This document shows positions 2,115-64,000 of a stretch of DNA of 64,000 nucleotides, in pieces (position 1 is the first letter of the stretch; each line of letters opens with the position of its first letter). The stretch lies in the NCBI GenBank assembly GCA_017999835.1, contig JAGNLA010000005.1:66263-130262 (forward strand), given 5' to 3'. The notes under the pieces are model-generated. The model was given only the letters and a program-made list of their open reading frames with translations, searched no databases and was not told where the DNA came from. The position numbers were made by a program, and so were the translations under genes. This stretch comes from Caldisericia bacterium (GTDB lineage Bacteria; Caldisericota; Caldisericia; JAAYUI01).

Positions 2115-3671
2115 ATGACACAGGATTTTGAACTAGAAGGTTTCCTAGCAGTAATACCTGACAACATAAGACAGAAGCTCATCGATTCAGGGAATTTTGA
2201 TACCCTGTATGAGGTGGTGCTTGACCTTGGAAGACCACCTGAAGCCAGGTATAAAGACGGCACGGTTTATCTTTCCGAGCAGGCAGTCACCTTTTTTGAC
2301 ATCGAGTGGGTGATTGGACGAGTCAGGGAGTTTGACCGTGACAATCGTTCCGGTATCGAGCGAACACTCCACAGAATCTCAGCCATCCAAAACCGAAGTG
2401 GTCGAATCATTGGCCTCACCCTTCGATATGGACGAGCAATTCAAGGTGTTATCAATGTAATACGCGATTTCTTTGAGTCAGGCAGATCGGTTCTCATTGT
2501 TGGTCGCCCAGGCGTTGGCAAAACCACCATCATGAGGGAAGCGGCCAGAGTGCTGTCGACCGAAATGGGCAAAAGGGTCATAATCGTTGACACCAGCAAC
2601 GAAATCGCCGGTGATGGCGACATCCCTCACCACGGCATCGGCAGAGCCAGACGCATGCAGGTTCCAAAACATGTTGAACAGCACACAGTCATGATTCAGG
2701 CTGTTGAAAACCACATGCCTGAGGTCATCGTCATCGACGAAATCGGCACCGAGGAAGAGGCAGCAGCCTGTAGAACCATTGCCGAAAGAGGCGTCCAGCT
2801 TGTTGGCACAGCTCATGGAAACAGCATCTCTAATCTTCTTTTAAACCCGACTCTTTCAGATCTTCTCGGTGGCATCAACTCCGTCGTGCTCAGTGATGAA
2901 GAGGCTTTCAGGCGTGGAACCCAGAAAACCGTGCTCGAGCGTACCCAGCCACCAACCTTCGACGTGCTCATCGAAATCCGTGAACGTGGCAAGTTTGCCA
3001 TCTACCCCGATATTGACGAGGCTGTTGACCGCTACCTTCGTGACACCACGCTCAAACCAGAGCTTCGAACCCAGAAGGAAGACGGCACCTACGAAACCCA
3101 ATATGAAGAGCTCAAGACCAACAAAGATAGCTTTGAAGAGGTCTTTCTGGCCCATGAGCCAAAAGAAACTCCCAAAGACAAATATCAGGAGGATGTCATC
3201 GACATCTTCCCGTTCGGCATCTCCAGAGACTACATCGAACGCGCTGCCAGAGCTCTTCGCGTGAGAGTTGGTATATCTCGAAGATTATCAGAATCAGACA
3301 TGGTTTTGACCACAATAAACTACGAGCAGAAACGCCCACAGGCAATACTTGAGGCAAAAACACTGGAGATTCCGGTTTATGCCATCGCCCAAAACTCCTT
3401 AAGCCAGGTCAAGCGTTTCCTGCGAGGCGTTCAGTCAAGCTCCCCAGACGAAGCAGAAGTCCAGGTAATTCCGAACAACGCCATCGAAACCGTGCTTCGT
3501 GAAAACCAGACGGTCAGGCTGCCGCCTGCACCGCCAAAAGTAAGAAGATTCCAGCACAAGACGGCCGAAAGATTCGGTCTTGTCACATCAAGCATAGGCG
3601 AGGAACCAAACCGTTCCGTGGTCATACACCCGCCCAAATTCCAGGAGGTTACAGAAGATGAGAATCAGTAA
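2115..3671 (+). CDS. P-loop AAA-type ATPase, SpoIIIAA/Ycf45-like
   Basis: Walker A GRPGVGKTT, Walker B VIVIDEIG and TAHG motifs; 518 aa. Its 3' end overlaps proS by 14 nt. Confidence 0.5.
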   Translation: MTQDFELEGFLAVIPDNIRQKLIDSGNFDTLYEVVLDLGRPPEARYKDGTVYLSEQAVTFFDIEWVIGRVREFDRDNRSGIERTLHRISAIQNRSGRIIGLTLRYGRAIQGVINVIRDFFESGRSVLIVGRPGVGKTTIMREAARVLSTEMGKRVIIVDTSNEIAGDGDIPHHGIGRARRMQVPKHVEQHTVMIQAVENHMPEVIVIDEIGTEEEAAACRTIAERGVQLVGTAHGNSISNLLLNPTLSDLLGGINSVVLSDEEAFRRGTQKTVLERTQPPTFDVLIEIRERGKFAIYPDIDEAVDRYLRDTTLKPELRTQKEDGTYETQYEELKTNKDSFEEVFLAHEPKETPKDKYQEDVIDIFPFGISRDYIERAARALRVRVGISRRLSESDMVLTTINYEQKRPQAILEAKTLEIPVYAIAQNSLSQVKRFLRGVQSSSPDEAEVQVIPNNAIETVLRENQTVRLPPAPPKVRRFQHKTAERFGLVTSSIGEEPNRSVVIHPPKFQEVTEDENQ

Positions 3672-52014: not shown

Positions 52015-53325
52015 TTAAAACAATCTCAATATGACATTTATCATCCCTGTAGCTAAAACTCCAAGAATGATTATTGCAATGCATATCCAATATTGACCCC
52101 AGTCAATAAGGAAATTTTGGTTTGTTGGTAAACTTGTGTTAATAGTTTTGATGCTAAAAGCTGCGTAATAAGAACTTTTAGAAGGAATCATATAGATATC
52201 TTTCATAGTATATGCATAAATCCAATGTTTTTCATATTCATCAGAACCTATTATGACATACTGTATATCTTTCGGTAATCCAGTAAATGCGATATATTCT
52301 AGAAAACCGAAATCATTAACAATACCTGGGCTTAAAAAACCTCCAGCTTTCTTAATCGCAAGTAACCCGAAAGAATTCAATCCTTCATATAAATACCAAG
52401 GCCACTCAAAATCACTAGAATTTACTTTTTTATATTTATACCCTTTTGCGTCAAAAGAAATCATACTTTCTCTATAATCTTTTACAAACATTGATCCCAA
52501 AGCAACTTCAAGAAACCCATCCTCAATTTTTCGTCCTTTAACGTCTGGCACTTGTTTTGAAAAAAGAACATTCATATCGCTGTCAAATATTATTGCTTTT
52601 TTTCTATCAAGCAGCAGGGTTGCAAAAATTTCATTTTTATAATCATCATTTATCTGAACAGATGAATTAACATCAAATGATGAAATCGATTTAATAATTT
52701 TCAAAATACCGCTTATCAAAGTATATTTTATTAATTCTTTACCGTCATAAACGAACAAATTTCGTTCATTAGAATACCCAGACCCGGATACGTAGTTAAG
52801 TATCTTTCTCTCAATTTGACATGTTTTCTTGCCTGTCAAATCATATACATTGATTTTATTCATACCATCTTGAAGCGTAATCCAAAACAGACCATTATCT
52901 TTATAAATGTTTATTATTTCTGATCCTGAAACAACAAATGTATCTGACAGAACAATCTGATCGCTATACTGATTTACTTTGAATATAGATATGTATTGAG
53001 TTTTCTCTTTGTCATGCAAGACAAAAAAAAGAGTCGAGTACTGGTCATCTGTCAAGGCACTCTGCCAGTCAAGTATTTCTCCAGGCATTTCAAAACTTGC
53101 TATCAGTTTGTCGAGCATTTTGTCAGAATAAGCGTTCAATTTATCGCCTTTATGTGTTATCACTAAGGAACCCTTTACATCTGCGGTGTCAAAGGATTCC
53201 AGAATCCTGCCAGCGTCAATAGGTTTCGTCGTATATCCTGGTGAAACCGAATAGATTCTAAATTCTGGAACCATCGTTATTAGAGATATTATCGCAATCA
53301 AAACAAACCTGACCCTTATTCTCAA
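52015..53325 (-). CDS. Hypothetical membrane-anchored protein in lower-GC DNA
   Basis: N- and C-terminal transmembrane segments and a K/I/Y/N-rich composition. Confidence 0.4.
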   Translation of the reverse strand: MRIRVRFVLIAIISLITMVPEFRIYSVSPGYTTKPIDAGRILESFDTADVKGSLVITHKGDKLNAYSDKMLDKLIASFEMPGEILDWQSALTDDQYSTLFFVLHDKEKTQYISIFKVNQYSDQIVLSDTFVVSGSEIINIYKDNGLFWITLQDGMNKINVYDLTGKKTCQIERKILNYVSGSGYSNERNLFVYDGKELIKYTLISGILKIIKSISSFDVNSSVQINDDYKNEIFATLLLDRKKAIIFDSDMNVLFSKQVPDVKGRKIEDGFLEVALGSMFVKDYRESMISFDAKGYKYKKVNSSDFEWPWYLYEGLNSFGLLAIKKAGGFLSPGIVNDFGFLEYIAFTGLPKDIQYVIIGSDEYEKHWIYAYTMKDIYMIPSKSSYYAAFSIKTINTSLPTNQNFLIDWGQYWICIAIIILGVLATGMINVILRLF

Positions 53326-55754: not shown

Positions 55755-56549
55755 TTGAAACAATCAGGCGCAAAATTATCTGACGTTCAATCATTATATT
55801 CAGGTGTAGTGCGTGATCTTTGGGTATTGTGCATGGGCGAACAGATTCATGCCGGCGGAATGATGTCAAGCATGGAGCTTGCCAAATCGGCTGGGATTAA
55901 AGAAGGGATGCACGGTGTTGACCTGTGCTGTTGTATCGGCGCAGGGACAAGATTTCTTGCAAAAAATTTCAAAGTCAAAATGGATGGCATTGACGCAACC
56001 GCTTCAGCTGTGGCCAAAGCCAAAGAAGAGGCAAAAGCAGAAAAACTAGAATCAGTACTCAATTATATTGAAGCTGACGTCACCAAAATTCCAGTCGAAG
56101 CTGGAAAGTATGACTTTGTGTGGGGCGAGGATGCCTGGTGCTATGTTGAAGACAAGGAAAAAATCATCTCCGAAGCAGCAAGAATTCTCAAACCAGGCGG
56201 AGTTGTCGCTTTCACCGACTGGATCGATGGCCCAAAAGGTCTTACAGAAGAAGAGGCTTTCAGGATCAACGATTTCATGAAATTCCCATACATGGAATCC
56301 CTTGAAGGCTACAAGAATCTACTTGTCAAGCATGGCTTTGAAGTGAAGGAAGCCACTTACATCCCGTTTGCAAAGTACGTTGACCTCTACCTGACCATGC
56401 TCACCGAACAGCACACCTACGACGCCCTCAGAATCATTGGCAACGACATGGCGATGTTCCAGGCGATGGGTGCCGAATTCGGTTTCATCCAGCAAAAAGC
56501 GCACGAAGACAAGATAACCCGCGGAAGGTTTGTAGGCATAAAGAAATGA
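55755..56549 (+). CDS. Class I SAM-dependent methyltransferase
   Basis: VDLCCCIGAGTRF motif I. TTG start lies 7 nt after AAGGAGG. Confidence 0.7.
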   Translation: MKQSGAKLSDVQSLYSGVVRDLWVLCMGEQIHAGGMMSSMELAKSAGIKEGMHGVDLCCCIGAGTRFLAKNFKVKMDGIDATASAVAKAKEEAKAEKLESVLNYIEADVTKIPVEAGKYDFVWGEDAWCYVEDKEKIISEAARILKPGGVVAFTDWIDGPKGLTEEEAFRINDFMKFPYMESLEGYKNLLVKHGFEVKEATYIPFAKYVDLYLTMLTEQHTYDALRIIGNDMAMFQAMGAEFGFIQQKAHEDKITRGRFVGIKK

Positions 56550-57568
56550 GCGACCAACTCAAGGTGCACCTTGACCGATCAGGGCAGGAAAGATCAGGAA
56601 GCGTCTGTACATGCTCGTACGTCCCGCGCGAGCTGTTGGAAAGCTTCGGTCTTGGTGCATCCTGGGTTCCGATAAACGGAACAGTTTCCGAGGAATCTAA
56701 AGGCGAGCAAAAATCAAGCGCCACGGTTTGTTCATGGTGCAAATCGATTTTAAGCTTTGAAGACCTTGGTTTGGTGGTTGGAACAACCACATGCGACCAA
56801 ATGAGGCGCACGCTTGACTTGATGTCAAGCCAGGGTAAAAATACGCTCGTCATAAACATGCCAGCCACCAGAACACCCGATTCAAAGCAATACTTTTATT
56901 CGGAAATCGTTTGGCTTAAAAACAGGCTTGAAGAGGTTTTAGGGGCAAAATTCGACCCTGACAAACTTCTTTCTGTCACAAAAGCAAGAAACCTTATCCG
57001 CGCAAGACTCCGAGAGCTCAGGCACAACCTGAAGGGTTCACAGTTTTCGGCTCTTGTCCAGCTTGAAGCCAGGCTCGCGCCTGTCGACATGTTGGCGATG
57101 CTTGACGGGCTTGTGGTAGAAAACGTGATAAAAGCCAGCGCAAAAAGGCTGATGATCTGTGGCAGTCCTTTGACACCTGGCGACATCAGGTTTTTGGAAA
57201 AAATTGAAAATATAGGTGCCGAGATAGTTGCTGACGCAACCTGCACCGGTGACAGGAGAATAGATTTTGAAATCCCAGAGGTTGGCGACCCTCTCAGAAA
57301 CCTTTCTGATGCATACTTTGACAAACCTCCTTGCATAAGGGCAAGGCCAAATGATGAATTTTTTGAATATGCCAAAAAAATGATTTCACAAAGAAAAATC
57401 GACGCTGTAATCTGGAGGACGGTCAGGTTCTGCGACCTTTGGTCGTCCGAGTTCCAGCGTGCACAAAAGATTTTGGGCCTTCCAATGCTCAACCTTGACA
57501 TGACTTATTCAGACACCGGTTCGTCAAGGGTTGGCGTCCGCGTTGAAGCATTCCTGGAGAACCTGTGA
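56546..57568 (+). CDS. 2-hydroxyacyl-CoA dehydratase/benzoyl-CoA reductase (HGD-D) family subunit
   Basis: Conserved Cys residues and a C-terminal ...GLP.L.LD.....R.E.F.E.L block shared with the next two genes. Overlaps the previous gene by 4 nt. Confidence 0.55.
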   Translation: MSDQLKVHLDRSGQERSGSVCTCSYVPRELLESFGLGASWVPINGTVSEESKGEQKSSATVCSWCKSILSFEDLGLVVGTTTCDQMRRTLDLMSSQGKNTLVINMPATRTPDSKQYFYSEIVWLKNRLEEVLGAKFDPDKLLSVTKARNLIRARLRELRHNLKGSQFSALVQLEARLAPVDMLAMLDGLVVENVIKASAKRLMICGSPLTPGDIRFLEKIENIGAEIVADATCTGDRRIDFEIPEVGDPLRNLSDAYFDKPPCIRARPNDEFFEYAKKMISQRKIDAVIWRTVRFCDLWSSEFQRAQKILGLPMLNLDMTYSDTGSSRVGVRVEAFLENL

Positions 57569-58983
57569 CCGACCCAAAACCAGCCCAGATAACCCACAGC
57601 CAGTGGGACGAGGCTTTCAAACACTTGCCTGAATCAATAAAACATTCCTACCACTACCTGGCCGGAACAGCCCAACAAACCGACTATCTCAACGACTCCA
57701 GGTGCTTTGAGGAGTTTGAGGGTGACACGAGGCTAAGGTCGCTTAAGTTCGACAACTCGCTGGCATCGCTCCGTCTTTGGTCGTTCCTGCTTTCTGAAGA
57801 AGGCAGACTGCACAAGTCCAGGGCTGCAGGCAAAAAAATAATCGGCACCATGAAAGACCTTGGCACAGCATCAATCCTTGCCTATGCCTGTGACAACGCC
57901 ATCGCCTTCTATCCTGACGGCGCATGGTGGGTTCCGTGCGTGATGGAAATGAGCGAAGGTTTACTTCGAGTTGCCGATTCCCTGGGTTTTGGTGACGAGA
58001 TGTGCCCTGCCAGAGCCGCCCTTGCCGCATTTTTTAAAGGCGGTCACTTCCCCATGCCAGATTTGCTTGTTGGCGCTGTTGGTTGCTGCTGCGATGATTT
58101 TTCAGCAATCCAGCAGAGGGTTGCCGATACCGAAATCCCGATTGTCTGGTGGGAACTGCCATACAGGCGAGAAGCTTCGCCTGACGAGCCTTATGAAGTC
58201 ACCCCAACAGGCTTGAAGATTTCAACAAGGCTTGTCGACTTTGTAGTCGGTCAGCTTGGAAAAGTCAAAACAGCCATTGAACAAACCACAGGCCAAACCA
58301 TCACAGACGAAAAACTGAAAATGGCTATCAGTAAGTCAAACCAGATGCGTCGTTTGCTTGGAAAAATCCGTGACCTTTCGTATGGTTCAGCCCCAGTTCC
58401 ATTCCCTTCGCTTGAAACCCAGATTTGTGAGATGCTTGCGCTCCACTTCTGCTCGGAGATGGACGAATCCATCAACGTTTTGGAGCATGTGGCAACCACA
58501 ATTGAGGCAAGAGTCAACAACCACGAAGGTGTTTTTCCGGAGGATTCGTGCAGGTGTGTTTGGGTCAATCCGGTTGCAGACCTTCGCGCCATGAACATGT
58601 TCGAGTCTCTTGGAGGAACGATTGCCGGAACCGAATACCTGTTTCGCCATGCGCTGGTACAAATTCCAACAGACATTGACCCAATGAGGGCACTCGCTCT
58701 TGCAGCCCTTTGCGACCCAATGATTGGCAGCTCCAGTTACCGTGCCCAGCTTGTGGTTGACGAGGCCATCAGATATAGAGCCGAAGGTGTTGTCATCAGC
58801 AACATCCCGGGCGCTTCCCACTGTGCCACCGAAGGCACAATCATCCGTGACTACGTTCATGAGAAAACCGGTTTGCCTGTGCTTGAAATAACGATCCCTC
58901 CGCTTATTGACAGTGAATCAGCCCAGCTTTCCACAAGGTTTGAAGCTTTTTTTGAAACAATCCGCGCAAGGAGAAACAAATGA
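57565..58983 (+). CDS. HGD-D family subunit (HgdA/B-like)
   Basis: 472 aa, with the C-terminal GLPVLEI...RFEAFFETI block. Overlaps the previous gene by 4 nt. Confidence 0.6.
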   Translation: MTDPKPAQITHSQWDEAFKHLPESIKHSYHYLAGTAQQTDYLNDSRCFEEFEGDTRLRSLKFDNSLASLRLWSFLLSEEGRLHKSRAAGKKIIGTMKDLGTASILAYACDNAIAFYPDGAWWVPCVMEMSEGLLRVADSLGFGDEMCPARAALAAFFKGGHFPMPDLLVGAVGCCCDDFSAIQQRVADTEIPIVWWELPYRREASPDEPYEVTPTGLKISTRLVDFVVGQLGKVKTAIEQTTGQTITDEKLKMAISKSNQMRRLLGKIRDLSYGSAPVPFPSLETQICEMLALHFCSEMDESINVLEHVATTIEARVNNHEGVFPEDSCRCVWVNPVADLRAMNMFESLGGTIAGTEYLFRHALVQIPTDIDPMRALALAALCDPMIGSSSYRAQLVVDEAIRYRAEGVVISNIPGASHCATEGTIIRDYVHEKTGLPVLEITIPPLIDSESAQLSTRFEAFFETIRARRNK

Positions 58984-61244
58984 AAACACTTGGCATTGAC
59001 GTTGGCTCAAGATCCGTCAAAGGCGTCATCTATGACTGTATATCCAAATCTGTTCTTGCAAGCGGCGCCATCGACACCTCAACCGACACAAAAAAAGATG
59101 CTGGTGAAATCAGGGATATGCTCTTTGACATGGCAAGCATAACGTCAGTCGACCGCACCGTTGCCACTGGTTACGGCAGGAGTATGGTCGAGTTTGCAAC
59201 CGACATTACAACCGAGATCACCTGTCACGCCATAGGCGTGCTTTCGTTGTTTCCACAAGCAAAAACCATCATCGACATTGGCGGTCAGGATTCAAAGGTC
59301 ATCCACATCGGTGACGGCATAGTCAAAGATTTCACCATGAACGACCGATGTGCAGCCGGCACAGGCAGATTTCTTGAAGTGGTTGCTAGGATTCTGGGAA
59401 CCGACGTTGACGGTATGGCTGAGCTTGCCATGAACTCGACCGGAGAGACTGAGATAAGCTCGATGTGCGTTGTGTTTGCTGAGTCCGAGGTCATCGGCAT
59501 GATGACCCGTGGAACGCCAAGGGAAGAGCTTGCAGCCGGCATCCACAAAGCTATCGCCAGGAGAATCGCTGGCATGGCCGAACGTGGTCGCTATGAGTCA
59601 CCGGTAGTCTTTACCGGAGGAGTTGCAAAAAACAAAGCAATGGTGAGGGCTTTGGGCATCGAACTTCACGAAAGGCTGACAATCCCACCAGACTCGAGAA
59701 TCACCGGAGCACTTGGCGCTGCTTTGCTTGCATCAAGAAAACTAGGTCACACAGGTGAGCTTGAGAACAAAGACATCCAAAGAAACCATAAGGTGCTGCT
59801 TAGCGTTGGTTCTGTCACCGAATCGTCAGGGTCGTGCAATGGAGGAAAGATGGCAAACCTGGTAGATCAAACCAGGTATGAAGACAGCTGCGCATGTGGT
59901 TCTAAACCTGAACCAGTAGCTGTCCAATCCTGTTGCGGAAGCATCTCAGTCTCAGAGGAACCATGCGATTGTCATGAAAGAAAGGCAGAACCATCGCCAT
60001 GTTGTGGGTCAACCCATGAAGTCTCAAAAACCCCTAAGTCCCCAAGCTGTACAAAGCGTCCGACAAGTTGTAGCGAAGCGCCAAAAAATCCTTACGTCCA
60101 CACCGTTCCAGCCCTGACAAGGTTTGACAGGATGGTTCAAAACTCAATCGACTACGCCACCTACGCCAAAAAACAGGGCAAAAAGATTGTCTCGATATTC
60201 TGCGAGTACACACCCAGAGAGCTGGTGCTGGCTGCTGGAGCTGTTCCAGTGTGTGCCTGCGGCGGGTCGCACCAGATGGCGCTTGAGTCCGAAAAGGAAC
60301 TCCCAGCAAACCTTTGCCCTTTGATCAAATCCAGCTACGGCTACCACATTGAGCATGCCAATCCGATTTTTGAGATGAGCGACCTGGTGATTGCCGAAAC
60401 AACCTGTGACGGAAAGAAGAAAATGTATGAGCTGATGGGTCTGGAAAAACCGATGCACATCCTCGAGCTGACCCAAAAACCAGACGAAACCGAAGCGTTT
60501 GACCACTGGCTTGCTGAGGTGAGAAAACTCAAGGAAAAACTGGAAGCACTCACTGGCAACAAAATAACCGATGAAAAGCTCTCAAACGCAATAAAAATGA
60601 TGAACCGCGAAAGAAAACTAAAGAGGGCTATTGCGTCTCTATCATCCAAGGGCTTGAAAGGCTCTGAAATACTGGATGCCAAATCTCTGATAGCCTGCAT
60701 CCCGGAAGACCTTGAGGCTTATCAAGACATCATCGCCCAAGCCAATGCTTTGCCGGATGAAAAGTCAGACAAGCCACGAATTTTGATGACAGGCGTGCCC
60801 ATGCCGCACGGCGCAGAGAAGGTTATCAACCTTATCGAGGAGGCAGGTGCAAAGATTGTGGTTCAGGAAAGCTGCACAGGCGTCAAACCAATTCTGGAAG
60901 ATGTCGATGAAACTGGCGATCCTCTCACAGCAATCGCGCGCAAATACTTCCACCTCGAATGCTCATGCATGACCCCAAACAAAGGCAGATTCGGGCTTAT
61001 TGATAAACTTATCTATGAGTATAAACCGGAGGGCATCATCGACCTTGTCTGGATGGCGTGCCTAACCTACAGCGTGGAATCGGCGTTGCTCAAGCGTCAC
61101 ATTGAAGAGAAACACAAAATGCCGTTCCTCAAAATTGAGACCGACTACAGCCCGTCAGACATCGGCCAACTAAGACTCAGGATCGAAAGCTTCCTGTCGC
61201 TGATTGAGAGCAGGAGAGGCCGCATAGACTCAACAAATCCATAA
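58980..61244 (+). CDS. Fusion of a BadF/BadG/BcrA/BcrD-type activase ATPase, a Cys-rich linker and a HGD-D family domain
   Basis: N-terminal MKTLGIDVGSRSVKGV..DIGGQDSK..FTGG is an acetate/sugar-kinase-fold activase. About 12 Cys lie in about 90 aa of linker. The C-terminus has HGD-D motifs. Confidence 0.7.
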   Translation: MKTLGIDVGSRSVKGVIYDCISKSVLASGAIDTSTDTKKDAGEIRDMLFDMASITSVDRTVATGYGRSMVEFATDITTEITCHAIGVLSLFPQAKTIIDIGGQDSKVIHIGDGIVKDFTMNDRCAAGTGRFLEVVARILGTDVDGMAELAMNSTGETEISSMCVVFAESEVIGMMTRGTPREELAAGIHKAIARRIAGMAERGRYESPVVFTGGVAKNKAMVRALGIELHERLTIPPDSRITGALGAALLASRKLGHTGELENKDIQRNHKVLLSVGSVTESSGSCNGGKMANLVDQTRYEDSCACGSKPEPVAVQSCCGSISVSEEPCDCHERKAEPSPCCGSTHEVSKTPKSPSCTKRPTSCSEAPKNPYVHTVPALTRFDRMVQNSIDYATYAKKQGKKIVSIFCEYTPRELVLAAGAVPVCACGGSHQMALESEKELPANLCPLIKSSYGYHIEHANPIFEMSDLVIAETTCDGKKKMYELMGLEKPMHILELTQKPDETEAFDHWLAEVRKLKEKLEALTGNKITDEKLSNAIKMMNRERKLKRAIASLSSKGLKGSEILDAKSLIACIPEDLEAYQDIIAQANALPDEKSDKPRILMTGVPMPHGAEKVINLIEEAGAKIVVQESCTGVKPILEDVDETGDPLTAIARKYFHLECSCMTPNKGRFGLIDKLIYEYKPEGIIDLVWMACLTYSVESALLKRHIEEKHKMPFLKIETDYSPSDIGQLRLRIESFLSLIESRRGRIDSTNP

Positions 61245-61281
61245 TCGCAAGTTTCACCTGATATTTTTCCAGCTGTTTTCC

Positions 61282-61962
61282 TTAAAAACCTTCCTCAGTC
61301 ACAGCTGTCACGTTTATCCCAAGTGCAGACACATACCCCTGACAAACGCACTGCAGACTCCAGATTGCAATCTGAGTTGGTGAATATTTTGTGCCATCTT
61401 CAATCCACCACACAATCATCGAAATTATCCAGTTTGCCAGACTCGCAACTGCTACTTGAGTAGGCATGACGTCAGTGCTGTTGATCTGTCGGATTGAAAA
61501 CCACGGAGAAGCCTTGAATCTATCATTCAATACTGATGCAGTATAATTGCTTAATTGAATTGAAAACCAAGAGCTTCCTTGTTTTCCAATCATTGCTTTA
61601 TAAAACTTCTCGTGTCTTCTGAAATGTCCAAAAAAAGCAATCCAGGCCTGGATAACACCTTGCATTTCAGAATTGTCATTGACAGTGTGTGTATTCATAT
61701 TCATAGCCCATCCAAGCATCTCCAGCTTTTCAGATCCCAACTCCGCAAGAAGCTCTTCAACTGCATTCTGAAAAATATTTCTCACCAGGTCGTATTTGTC
61801 AGAATAGTGGCGATAGAATGTGGATCGATTTATCATGGCTCGCTTTGCGATGTCACCCACTGATACCGCGTCAAAGCCTTTTTCGGAAATGAGGTCTATC
61901 ATGGTTGACTTTATCAGCTCACGAGTTTTTCTGACTCTGAGATCTTCGAGATTTTGCATCAT
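61282..61962 (-). CDS. TetR/AcrR family transcriptional regulator
   Basis: N-terminal HTH (FDAVSVGDIAKRAMINRSTFYRHY). Confidence 0.8.
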   Translation of the reverse strand: MMQNLEDLRVRKTRELIKSTMIDLISEKGFDAVSVGDIAKRAMINRSTFYRHYSDKYDLVRNIFQNAVEELLAELGSEKLEMLGWAMNMNTHTVNDNSEMQGVIQAWIAFFGHFRRHEKFYKAMIGKQGSSWFSIQLSNYTASVLNDRFKASPWFSIRQINSTDVMPTQVAVASLANWIISMIVWWIEDGTKYSPTQIAIWSLQCVCQGYVSALGINVTAVTEEGF

Positions 61963-61975
61963 AGTTCTCCTATTG

Positions 61976-62056
61976 TTGCATATGCATCAATTATCATTTT
62001 TTGCTTATTGCAGTTGAAATCATTTGTTCTATATATTATGCAACATAAAATTGCAT
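61976..62056. promoter_or_regulatory. Candidate TetR operator palindromes in the divergent promoter region
   Basis: Perfect 10-bp palindrome TGCATATGCA at 61977..61986, and ATGCAA-n7-TTGCAT at 62038..62056. Confidence 0.4.
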
Positions 62057-62092
62057 ATTCCAGAATAGTTGCATTGACAAGAGAGGTCTTAG

Positions 62093-63472
62093 ATGAGCAG
62101 CAACGCGTGGATTCGACGTGACATTGAAATAGCCAGGAGGCTAGGCGTTGACGTCATCGCTGAGAGGCAACGGTCAAGGTTCATTGATATCGTCGCGTTC
62201 GCACGACAAAACTCAGCGTACTATAAAGAGCTTTATAAGGACTTGCCTGAAAATATTGACAATCCTAGACTTCTACCAGTCACTGACAAAAAGAAGCTGA
62301 TGGCCAGATTTGATGATTGGTGTACAGACAGCAATGTGACATTGGCAAAAGTTCGTTCGTTTATTGACAACCCAAACCTTGTTGGTGAGCCATTTCTTGG
62401 TAAATATCTTGCCGTAACATCCTCGGGAACTACTGGCACACGCGGACTGTTCTTGATCGACGACGTATACAGCTCTGTAAACTCGTATCTGTTTTCAAAT
62501 GCTTTGCATGGGTGGCTTAATGTAAAAGAAAAAATGCAGATTCTCGGGAGCGGCGTGAAGATTGCCATTTTGGCAACAACAGGTGGTCATTTTGCCTCCT
62601 GCGCAGGTTATACAAGAATGTGCAAAACAAACCTGTTTGCAAGGTGGGCAATAAACCTGTATTCAGTACAAACACCAATTCCTGAACTCGTTAAAAAACT
62701 TAACAAGCAGAAACCTGCCATAATTTTTGGATATGGCAGCGCCGTTCGAATCCTTGCACAAGAGCAGGTACAAGGACGATTGAACATTAATCCCGTTCTT
62801 ATCATTCCATCTGGTGAGAGTCTTGGAGAACATGAATATGATCAAATCAAAAAACATTTCAGACATAGCAAGATTTCCAATCTATACGGCGCGTCAGAAT
62901 GTTCCTTTATTGGCTCGATGTGCAAACATGGTTGGTACCATGTAAACAGCGACTGGGTCATTATCGAGCCAGTCAATCAAGATTACACACCAACCAGACC
63001 TGGAGAATTGTCCCACACAGTTTTGTTAACGAATCTTGCAAACAAGGTTCAGCCAATCTTGCGATATGATCTTGGCGATAGGGTATTGACCAGAGCTGAC
63101 TCCTGTCCTTGTGGCAATCCCCTTCCTGCAATCCAGATTATAGGGCGAGCTGCCGACATCATGCACTTTGCTACGCTTGACAAGCACGTGGTCTCAATCC
63201 CGCCTCTGGCATTTGCTACTTTAGTTGATAGCATTCCGGGAATAAAGCAGTTTCAGATTGCTCAAACAACAGGAGAGTCACTTTCTATACGTTTGAATTT
63301 GATTGAGGGAGCAGATAGCGAAAGAGTTTGGCAATCTCTATACAGTCAGATTTCAAAACTTCTATCTGAAAGGGAACTTAATCATATTTCAATTGTTCGC
63401 TCCAACGAGCCTCCGCTTCTTTCGCCAAGCGGAAAACTAAGAACAATAATACCTATTGAAGCTAATTTCTAG
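62093..63472 (+). CDS. PaaK/F390-synthetase-like adenylate-forming ligase
   Basis: LAVTSSGTTGTRG P-loop-like AMP-binding motif and the overall family size. Confidence 0.6.
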   Translation: MSSNAWIRRDIEIARRLGVDVIAERQRSRFIDIVAFARQNSAYYKELYKDLPENIDNPRLLPVTDKKKLMARFDDWCTDSNVTLAKVRSFIDNPNLVGEPFLGKYLAVTSSGTTGTRGLFLIDDVYSSVNSYLFSNALHGWLNVKEKMQILGSGVKIAILATTGGHFASCAGYTRMCKTNLFARWAINLYSVQTPIPELVKKLNKQKPAIIFGYGSAVRILAQEQVQGRLNINPVLIIPSGESLGEHEYDQIKKHFRHSKISNLYGASECSFIGSMCKHGWYHVNSDWVIIEPVNQDYTPTRPGELSHTVLLTNLANKVQPILRYDLGDRVLTRADSCPCGNPLPAIQIIGRAADIMHFATLDKHVVSIPPLAFATLVDSIPGIKQFQIAQTTGESLSIRLNLIEGADSERVWQSLYSQISKLLSERELNHISIVRSNEPPLLSPSGKLRTIIPIEANF

Positions 63473-63565
63473 TGTTGAAACCAACATTTGATTGTTTTGT
63501 GTCAATGACCTTTTTTAACAACACAAAATATGCATTGTTTTCTGTGTCTGTAACCGCAATCTACC

Positions 63566-63699
63566 TTCTCAAGCGGTACATCGAGGAAAAACACGGCATG
63601 CCATTCCTCAAAATCGAGACCGACTACAGCCCCTCAGACATCGGCCAACTAAGACTCAGGATTGAAAGCTTCCTGTCGCTGATTGAGAGCAGACTCTGA
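63566..63699 (+). pseudogene. 3' remnant of a paralogous HGD-D gene
   Basis: About 90% nt identity to 61087..61217, the 3' end of the 754-aa gene. The last ~75 nt are near identical, and no homologous upstream part is present. Confidence 0.6.
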
Positions 63700-63706
63700 T
63701 AAAAAA

Positions 63707-64000
63707 TCAGGAATCCAGTTTTGATTTTATCTCAAGAAGCATCTTCTCCATACCCTTCATTCTCTCCTCAAGGGTCTTTTTTTCTTCGTTGGATTCATTT
63801 TTTTGTTTCTTGGCCGTGATCTCCTGATACCCGGAAACAATTATTCCCGCAGGCAAAGCTATCAACCCTACCGAGAGGAGTGTTATGAAAGCGGTTATCA
63901 CTTTGCCCAGCCATGTTATTGGGTAAATATCACCATACCCAACCGTCGTAAGCGTGCATATGGCCCACCACATTGACTCGGGGATGGAGCTGAATTTTCT
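63707..64000 (-). CDS. K+ channel, 3'-partial; the pore region and TVGYGD selectivity filter are visible
   Basis: WWAICTLTTVGYGDIYP. The gene continues past the window end. Confidence 0.7.
   Translation of the reverse strand, partial: RKFSSIPESMWWAICTLTTVGYGDIYPITWLGKVITAFITLLSVGLIALPAGIIVSGYQEITAKKQKNESNEEKKTLEERMKGMEKMLLEIKSKLDS

Follow-up and report, generated by a model that had tools for sequence, protein, structure and literature searches.

Why does the 3′ end of an intact gene occur a second time beyond two further genes, and how did those genes come to lie between the two copies? The question is raised by a 64,000-nt stretch of a Caldisericia bacterium genome (assembly GCA_017999835.1, contig JAGNLA010000005.1, positions 66,263 to 130,262 of the forward strand), the whole of which is called the window here. 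Toward its end the window carries a four-gene operon closed by a fusion gene, followed by a TetR-family regulator, an adenylate-forming enzyme (the "ligase"), and a copy of the last 125 nt of the fusion gene. This repetition is genuine and meaningful, being the scar of a cargo insertion at a hot spot. Judged against related loci, the TetR-ligase pair is one of at least five alternative cargoes at this clade-specific hot spot, and copied gene ends ("remnants") are a recurrent by-product of cargo insertion. The favored explanation, with a probability of roughly 60%, is sequential displacement behind the fusion gene, in which homologous recombination on one side was combined with an illegitimate join on the far side. 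The features concerned are, in window positions:

58980..61244, plus strand: anchor fusion gene, 754 amino acids (aa); the N-terminal half is an acyl-CoA-dehydratase-type activase and the C-terminal half a double-cubane-cluster reductase
61089..61213, plus strand: repeat copy 1 (c1), the functional 3′ end of the fusion gene, with a near-identical core at 61155-61213
61220..61281, plus strand: left junction; the sequence departs from the orthologue consensus (...AGCAGGAGAGG, then AAAATAG) after 61219, and a short spacer then leads up to the TetR stop
61282..61962, minus strand: TetR-family regulator, 226 aa, TetR_N plus TetR_C_8
62093..63472, plus strand: adenylate-forming PaaK/F390-synthetase-like enzyme (the ligase), 459 aa
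63568..63699, plus strand: repeat copy 2 (c2), the displaced 3′ end of a former resident allele, with its own stop (..LIESRL-stop)
63707..64000, minus strand: 3′ part of a K+ channel gene, voltage-gated type (Ion_trans), an older cargo or a neighbor

The repeated gene end

Local alignment and a repeat finder agreed on one ungapped direct repeat of 125 nt, 61089-61213 against 63568-63692, with identity at 113 of 125 positions (90.4%; BLAST E of about 1e-44). Read in the fusion-gene frame, eight of the 12 mismatches fall on third codon positions. The remaining four comprise the replacement of a whole codon, AAA by GGC (K to G), and a single change at a first position (H to Y), which leaves 8 of the 10 differing codons synonymous. 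The mismatches are crowded toward one end, with 11 of the 12 in the first 66 nt and a single differing site in 61155-61213. The initial annotation, made from the sequence of the window, had placed the copies at 61087..61217 and 63566..63699, which is right to within a few bases, and its other observations on them, about 90% identity, mostly synonymous divergence, a nearly identical core, and a divergent TetR and PaaK/F390-synthetase-like ligase in between, held up on alignment and in the open reading frames (ORFs) and Pfam matches.

The similarity is neither below chance nor that of a generic motif. Beyond the BLAST value, a 47-nt core pattern with 3 mismatches allowed occurred exactly twice in the 64-kb window and 0 times in 100 shuffles. 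Five sequencing runs yielded contigs (L001-L005) that show the identical arrangement in independent assemblies, and therefore it is no assembly artefact.

The second copy still matches the C terminus of the HGD-D family (Pfam E 8.7e-10). It is contained in a 75-aa ORF (63472-63699) whose GTG start overlaps the ligase stop (TAGTG) and which is called as a gene in metagenome contigs. Only the last ~44 residues of this ORF are HGD-D-like, and the 75-aa "HGD-D" ORF is probably a relic, although it may be translationally coupled to the ligase.

Related loci and the edges of the remnants

What occupies the slot elsewhere? The comparison set consisted of ten related loci with fusion proteins 79-91% identical, and the operon was kept in all of them, with syntenic order in L006-L009, L170-L172, and L178. 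Behind this conserved anchor, the content varied as follows:

L006, L171: RCK gene, at most a few bases away from the fusion gene; no TetR, no ligase
L007, L009, L172: convergent K+ channel gene, the fusion stop directly abutting; no TetR, no ligase
L008: NmeDI_C/type II restriction endonuclease-like gene, 60-nt gene-end copy, RCK gene
L170: 405-aa protein without Pfam match, 110-nt gene-end copy, RCK gene, 16S rRNA gene
L178 (the closest long relative): 404-aa protein, ~45-nt gene-end copy, channel gene, intrinsic terminator, 16S rRNA gene
L090: GmrSD/HEC-05-like nuclease, channel gene; no gene-end copy

The TetR-ligase module is absent from L006, L007, L009, L171, and L172, where the fusion gene abuts the channel or RCK gene. 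In this respect the earlier suggestion of a recombination or insertion scar was right; its second half, a replaced paralogue body, was not (see below). In the relatives the right boundary of the slot is a stand-alone 16S rRNA gene (L170 15015-16560, minus strand; Rfam SSU_rRNA_bacteria, 1459.5 bits), and therefore the hot spot lies between the reductase operon and the rRNA gene. L178 (14605-14771) in addition has its own intrinsic terminator just beyond the 16S 3′ end. The 404- and 405-aa cargo proteins (L178 12344-13558 and L170 12427-13644) are homologous and 42% identical, with a hydrophobic N terminus and no Pfam or PADLOC match; they share the slot in two lineages yet differ in remnant length and downstream genes.

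When the fusion protein was used to scan contigs of metagenomes and GTDB genomes, most matches were to distant double-cubane proteins (≤66% identity), and L090 and L132 were the only useful loci. No 3′-end duplication was found when the distant double-cubane loci from the metagenome scan with this query were compared with themselves by BLAST. Therefore, the phenomenon is specific to the Caldisericales clade.

Several features of the remnants bear on their origin. First, their left edges differ, lying at -125 (c2), -110 (L170), about -62 (a third copy, c3, described below), -60 (L008), and about -45 (L178) from the gene end. Second, every remnant reaches the gene end and runs on into older downstream sequence, the RCK gene in L008 and L170 and the channel gene for c2 and L178. 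Third, no sequence motif common to the cargo ends was found among the cargoes compared. Finally, the two copies in the window resemble different natural alleles. Orthologues end in ...AGCAGGAGAGG-AAAATAG (SRRGK-stop) or close variants, and c1 has the novel tail RIDSTNP-stop, with the stop codon at 61242-61244. The c2 copy ends in AGCAGACTCTGA (SRL-stop), continues colinearly with L007 into the channel gene, and shares its tail with the short L178 remnant. By tail, c2 is L007-like and c1 is L006-like. Variant states of c2, among them the GGC K codon and the AGA-C.C tail, are similar to alleles that occur naturally in L170 and L007, and each state at the variable sites occurs among orthologue alleles. 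The mostly synonymous differences and the orthologue-like states therefore indicate that the two copies diverged as working genes in separate lineages. With the several lengths of the remnants also taken into account, c2 is to be read as the 3′ end that an earlier allele of the fusion gene left behind when displaced, and not as a decapitated paralogue.

A decapitated paralogue is what the initial annotation had proposed: a tandem HGD-D paralogue whose body was replaced by the TetR-ligase pair, with the ligase supplying CoA esters. In its favor, c2 is a true HGD-D C terminus with codon-level conservation, and the operon does hold several HGD-D paralogues. However, a second full-length copy of the fusion gene was found at the slot in none of the ten related loci (0/10 with a tandem copy), and c2 has 90% DNA identity to the adjacent gene compared to no detectable DNA identity among the operon's real paralogues. 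In L007 the sequence corresponding to c2 is the functional gene end and continues into the channel gene in the same way, and in other relatives remnants of 45, 60, and 110 nt sit with unrelated cargo. Moreover, the fusion protein is a double-cubane reductase by NCBIfam and not a dehydratase, and TetR-ligase pairs occur with no HGD-D gene nearby. This explanation is very improbable.

A simpler event within one genome was also considered, namely, a single illegitimate insertion in which a staggered break or template switching doubled ~125 nt of the target, after which the orphan copy drifted. The geometry is indeed like that of a long target-site duplication (gene to -7, insert, gene from -125), and the 3′ 59 nt are almost identical. 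But drift predicts mostly nonsynonymous changes, whereas only 2 of the 10 differing codons are nonsynonymous; the probability of 2 or fewer of 10 if 70% are expected is about 0.002. The resemblance of c2 to the L170 and L007 alleles also speaks against it. A further objection comes from the downstream sequence. The block at 63658-64651, which comprises the c2 tail and the channel gene, is 97.3% identical between the window and L178, compared to ~90% for the operon, and yet L178 has other cargo and another junction. Therefore, two independent displacements must have occurred on one resident background, at -125 by the TetR-ligase pair and at -45 by the 404-aa gene. Duplication in place is accordingly quite improbable.

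The third copy, c3, lies just past the end of the window, upstream of the channel gene (62 nt, L001 10149-10210), and has the ancestral end ...LIESRRGK-stop. With its tail it spans L001 10149-10225 (about 64643-64719 if the window were extended) and L002 8515-8591; in L004 it lies at 3108-3169. Contigs of three runs all stop exactly 63 nt past c3, as would be expected if a repeat or a branch point that varies between strains lay at these contig ends. The 48 nt after the c3 stop had no match in the relatives and are not the 3′ end of the RCK gene.

The c3 copy also provides the best view of a junction. The sequence is of the L178 type up to ...AAAAAAGCCGGTCA, the left stem of the L178 minus-strand terminator, and then reads GACATCGG... 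At this point the gene reads GCCCGTCA followed by GACATCGG, and the terminator side reads GCCGGTCA. The overlap of GCCGGTCA and GCCCGTCA therefore places the join within a microhomology in which GTCA is exact and 7/8 positions match overall. At c2, the right edge of the cargo is at 63567/63568, within about ±15 nt, and the sequence there for microhomology comparison with a donor is CTCAAGCG.

Recombination site or displacement

Could the gene end itself be a recombination site? Under site-specific integration, the last ~60 nt would be an attachment (att) site served by a recombinase encoded elsewhere, and recombinase-less cassettes would be stacked with att copies between them, as in pseudo-staphylococcal cassette chromosome (pseudo-SCC) elements at rlmH, cis-mobilizable elements (CIMEs), and pdif modules. 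Three observations are in line with this. The same gene end was used at least five times, with tandem copies; two of the remnants begin at most ~6 nt apart at TCAGACATCGG, which is also the start of the near-identical c1/c2 core; and orthologues show a higher third-position identity over the last 60 nt (0.66) than the gene mean (0.52). However, the extents of 45, 60, 62, 110, and 125 nt do not define a constant core, and the cargo ends share no sequence. Recombinase domains were not found by Pfam and PADLOC in the TetR, ligase, or channel proteins, in the L008, L090, and L170 cargo, in the flanking genes searched, or in ten integrase-sized ORFs of the window. The core shows no dyad symmetry or hairpin; single-strand DNA folding of both strands was no better than that of shuffles (z of +0.2 to +0.9), and an Rfam scan of 60900-64000 at E ≤ 0.1 gave no match. 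The c3 junction, for its part, is accounted for by the microhomology between terminator and gene. Site-specific integration is therefore unlikely.

A stronger form of the same idea is rather improbable. In it, the last ~60 nt of the fusion gene (TCAGACATCGG...GATTGAGAGCAG) would be a dedicated recombination site recognized by a recombinase encoded elsewhere, and the locus would be a cassette array of integron-like kind in Caldisericota, recombinase-unlinked and neighboring the 16S rRNA gene. No attC-like hairpin was found in the core and no integrase was seen in the loci. If it were true, the TetR-ligase pair, the channel gene, the nucleases, and the 404-aa protein would be exchangeable cassettes that excise as circles between copies.

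Sequential displacement fits the variable junctions, the one microhomology, the continuity of the remnants with older sequence, the allele-like divergence, and the lack of a recombinase or hairpin in the searches above. It would have proceeded as follows. The TetR-ligase pair (~2.35 kb, 61220-63567) would have come on DNA of a related lineage, already located behind that lineage's fusion gene. One end of the incoming DNA would have recombined homologously inside the conserved fusion gene, which served as the anchor, and the far, nonhomologous end would have been joined illegitimately 125 nt before the stop of the resident gene. As an alternative to such homology-facilitated illegitimate recombination, a Campbell-type single crossover of a circularized fragment would give the equivalent outcome. 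Either way, the product would be an intact gene with the incoming 3′ end (c1 and its new tail), the cargo, and the resident's orphaned last 125 nt (c2), with the channel gene still attached to it. A similar event at an earlier time would have put the channel gene before the still older gene end c3, which would make the locus a record of sequential displacements.

An anchor for such events is available, since the same four-gene operon lies upstream of all variant modules at the ten related loci. The identity profile of the operon to its relatives is mosaic along its length, which points to frequent homologous exchange among lineages. The last ~600 nt of the window's fusion gene are 84% identical to L006 and L178 compared to ~91% elsewhere, whereas L006 and L178 remain 93% identical to each other there; the excess divergence has a p of about 1e-6 for L006 and 1e-3 for L178. 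This suggests a pattern compatible with a donor-derived 3′ segment, but not a clean breakpoint.

The uneven spread of the c1/c2 differences requires a further step. Some variants are common to both copies within one genome: CTAAGA and CTG are shared by the copies of the window, and CTT by those of L178. Together with the uneven spread, this suggests that the 3′ core underwent gene conversion or that a crossover fell within it; later conversion between the copies probably evened out the last ~60 nt.

Seven points weigh against sequential displacement. First, the L090 cargo is present without any remnant. Second, the c3 and L008 remnants start at most ~6 nt apart, at TCAGACATCGG, which hints at a preferred site. 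Third, c1 and c2 differ at 11 sites over their first 66 nt and at 1 over the last 59, which is not what divergence between donor and resident alone predicts. Fourth, divergence is mosaic everywhere in the operon, so that the 3′ drop gives no clean breakpoint. Fifth, no donor genome with the fusion gene, TetR, and ligase but without c2 was found, so that the direction of transfer and any microhomology at 63567/63568 are putative. Sixth, the shift in GC content at third codon positions (GC3) of the TetR-ligase module is only mild, 0.41-0.42 compared to 0.49 ± 0.06 in other genes (~1.3 standard deviations), and is not relied on as evidence of foreign origin. Finally, natural competence or another route of DNA uptake would have to be presumed for this uncultured lineage, which is represented only by metagenome-assembled genomes (MAGs) and metagenomes.

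The type of event is known, and the locus is a well-resolved example of it in an uncultured phylum. Chromosomal integration hot spots between core genes hold defense and accessory genes in the pan-genomes of Escherichia coli and Pseudomonas. The present slot resembles them in its fixed flanks (the fusion operon and, in relatives, the 16S rRNA region), in its highly variable content, which includes restriction-type nucleases, and in that the hallmarks of mobile elements are often absent. It differs in that partial duplicates of the flanking gene accompany the steps here, which is not usual there. Insertion at the 3′ end of a gene that stays intact, flanking direct repeats, and tandem accretion are shared with SCCmec at rlmH, with tRNA and tmRNA islands, and with CIMEs and pseudo-SCC elements. 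Unlike in those systems, no recombinase was found here, the repeats vary in extent (45-125 nt) where a fixed short core would be expected and have diverged like alleles, and the element ends carry no conserved motifs.

Another parallel is that of the type VI secretion system (T6SS) effector-immunity arrays of Vibrio cholerae and the orphan 3′ modules of Rhs and contact-dependent inhibition (CDI) systems, for which the mechanism suggested is homology-facilitated illegitimate recombination (PMC5361080). There, as here, a conserved upstream anchor has new modules directly behind it and older 3′ fragments and genes pushed downstream into an array, no dedicated recombinase is involved, and the copies come from different lineages and not from local duplication. 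However, the anchor here is a redox-enzyme gene and not a polymorphic toxin, and what is duplicated is the anchor's conserved end and not a variable toxin tip. The cargo is also heterogeneous (a regulator and ligase, an ion channel, restriction nucleases, and the 404/405-aa proteins), and there is no immunity logic for retaining the old pieces. For an uncultured phylum, the locus thus documents clearly how accessory genes come to be stacked behind a conserved gene without mobile-element machinery being found, with a partial copy of the gene end left by each event. The hot spot can be mined for more cargo, including defense nucleases, in Caldisericales.

The operon, the cargo, and a second variable region

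The proposed tie between ligase and operon depends on what each of them is. The fusion protein has the Pfam domains BcrAD_BadFG and HGD-D. Its activase half passes TIGR00241 (250.6 bits against a cut-off of 125.4, residues 3-250), and its reductase half passes NCBIfam NF040772, the double-cubane-cluster anaerobic reductase (408.8 bits against a cut-off of 350, residues 382-741). By contrast, it fails the 2-hydroxyacyl-CoA dehydratase models (HadC, NF052456, 102 bits against a cut-off of 700), with a match only to the general Pfam HGD-D fold family, and the benzoyl-CoA reductase models of NCBIfam likewise are not passed. Among named homologues, the best come from Caldisericales MAGs and carry the annotation of double-cubane reductase. 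The gene order of the operon is a SAM (S-adenosylmethionine) methyltransferase, two diverged HGD-D paralogues, and the fusion gene last. By these matches, the operon is a double-cubane-type reductase system and not a 2-hydroxyacyl-CoA dehydratase. The two upstream paralogues (340 and 472 aa; window 56546-58983) match NF040772 weakly, with 146.9 and 69.7 bits against the cut-off of 350. The cysteine-rich linker between activase and reductase (window 59650-60065) is hypervariable among orthologues, with 52-85% nucleotide identity compared to 80-90% in its flanks, and its length differs.

The cargo itself consists of the divergently transcribed TetR and ligase genes, with two noncoding features in addition:

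61963..62092, no strand: divergent promoter region, a 20-nt palindrome and TTGCAT half-sites
63473..63567, plus strand: ligase 3′ flank, AT-rich, with a short hairpin (TTTTGTGT, 18 nt, ACACAAAA)

Both domains of the regulator passed their Pfam cut-offs (PF00440, 47.1 bits against 24; PF14278, 32.8 bits against 26.1). The palindrome, ATTGTTGCATATGCATCAAT, lies at 61972-61991, and more TTGCAT half-sites lie at 62037-62045, 62051-62058, and 62065-62074. In L174, a similar GTTGCTTATGCAGC adjoins the TetR start. The palindrome and half-sites are probable TetR operators, and the pair may form a self-contained unit in which TetR would repress the ligase until a ligand arrives.

Like PaaK and F390-synthetase-related enzymes, the ligase has adenylation motifs (SSGTTG, YGASE, RYDLGD, and GK in the translation) and partial matches to these families, and it stands opposite a TetR gene with palindromic operator-like sites. 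Unlike them, it falls below all curated family cut-offs: TIGR02304 (F390-synthetase-related) gave 118.7 against 251.9, the haloarchaeal PaaK model 26.6 against 700, and Pfam AMP-binding 16.3 against 29.9. PaaK-like structures in PDB matched residues ~236-358 only (9s3l, E 9e-13). Its placement reaches no further than the adenylate-forming superfamily. Its nearest homologue outside the window organism is 57% identical, and homologues are spread over many phyla, as a distinct, widely scattered subfamily that is often found with a TetR_C_8 regulator or in plasmid metal-resistance clusters. For example, a divergent TetR gene (TetR_N plus TetR_C_8) lies directly upstream of two homologues with 52-53% identity whose gene contexts are otherwise unrelated.

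On actinobacterial plasmids (L180, Arthrobacter sp. FB24 plasmid 3; L181, a Mycolicibacterium crocinum plasmid), homologues with 46-49% identity belong to metal-resistance clusters, together with ArsR/SmtB regulators, P-type ATPases, and cadmium-resistance transporters. One of these clusters adds a gene of the isoprenylcysteine carboxyl methyltransferase family, and a metagenomic ligase homologue, P0164, is fused to that domain. These contexts hint at a stress or resistance role for the ligase family.

The initial annotation had suggested a CoA ligase that feeds a CoA-ester dehydratase. This was not supported, since the supposed dehydratase is a reductase by NCBIfam, the TetR-ligase pair occurs in unrelated contexts, and the slot holds unrelated cargo in relatives. 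No functional link of the unit to the double-cubane operon was found, and because the pair recurs in unrelated contexts, a partnership with the operon is not supported. In annotation, the neighboring ligase is best not assigned to the double-cubane-reductase pathway.

A second region of the window also stands out. At 52015-53325 on the minus strand lies a 436-aa ORF without a Pfam match, with a GC content of 0.32 and a GC3 of 0.28 compared to 0.46 and 0.49 elsewhere. At this position there is no gene of that size in L178, and there are genes of 432-452 aa in L008 and L170. The 436-aa ORF is probably a second variable or foreign insertion.

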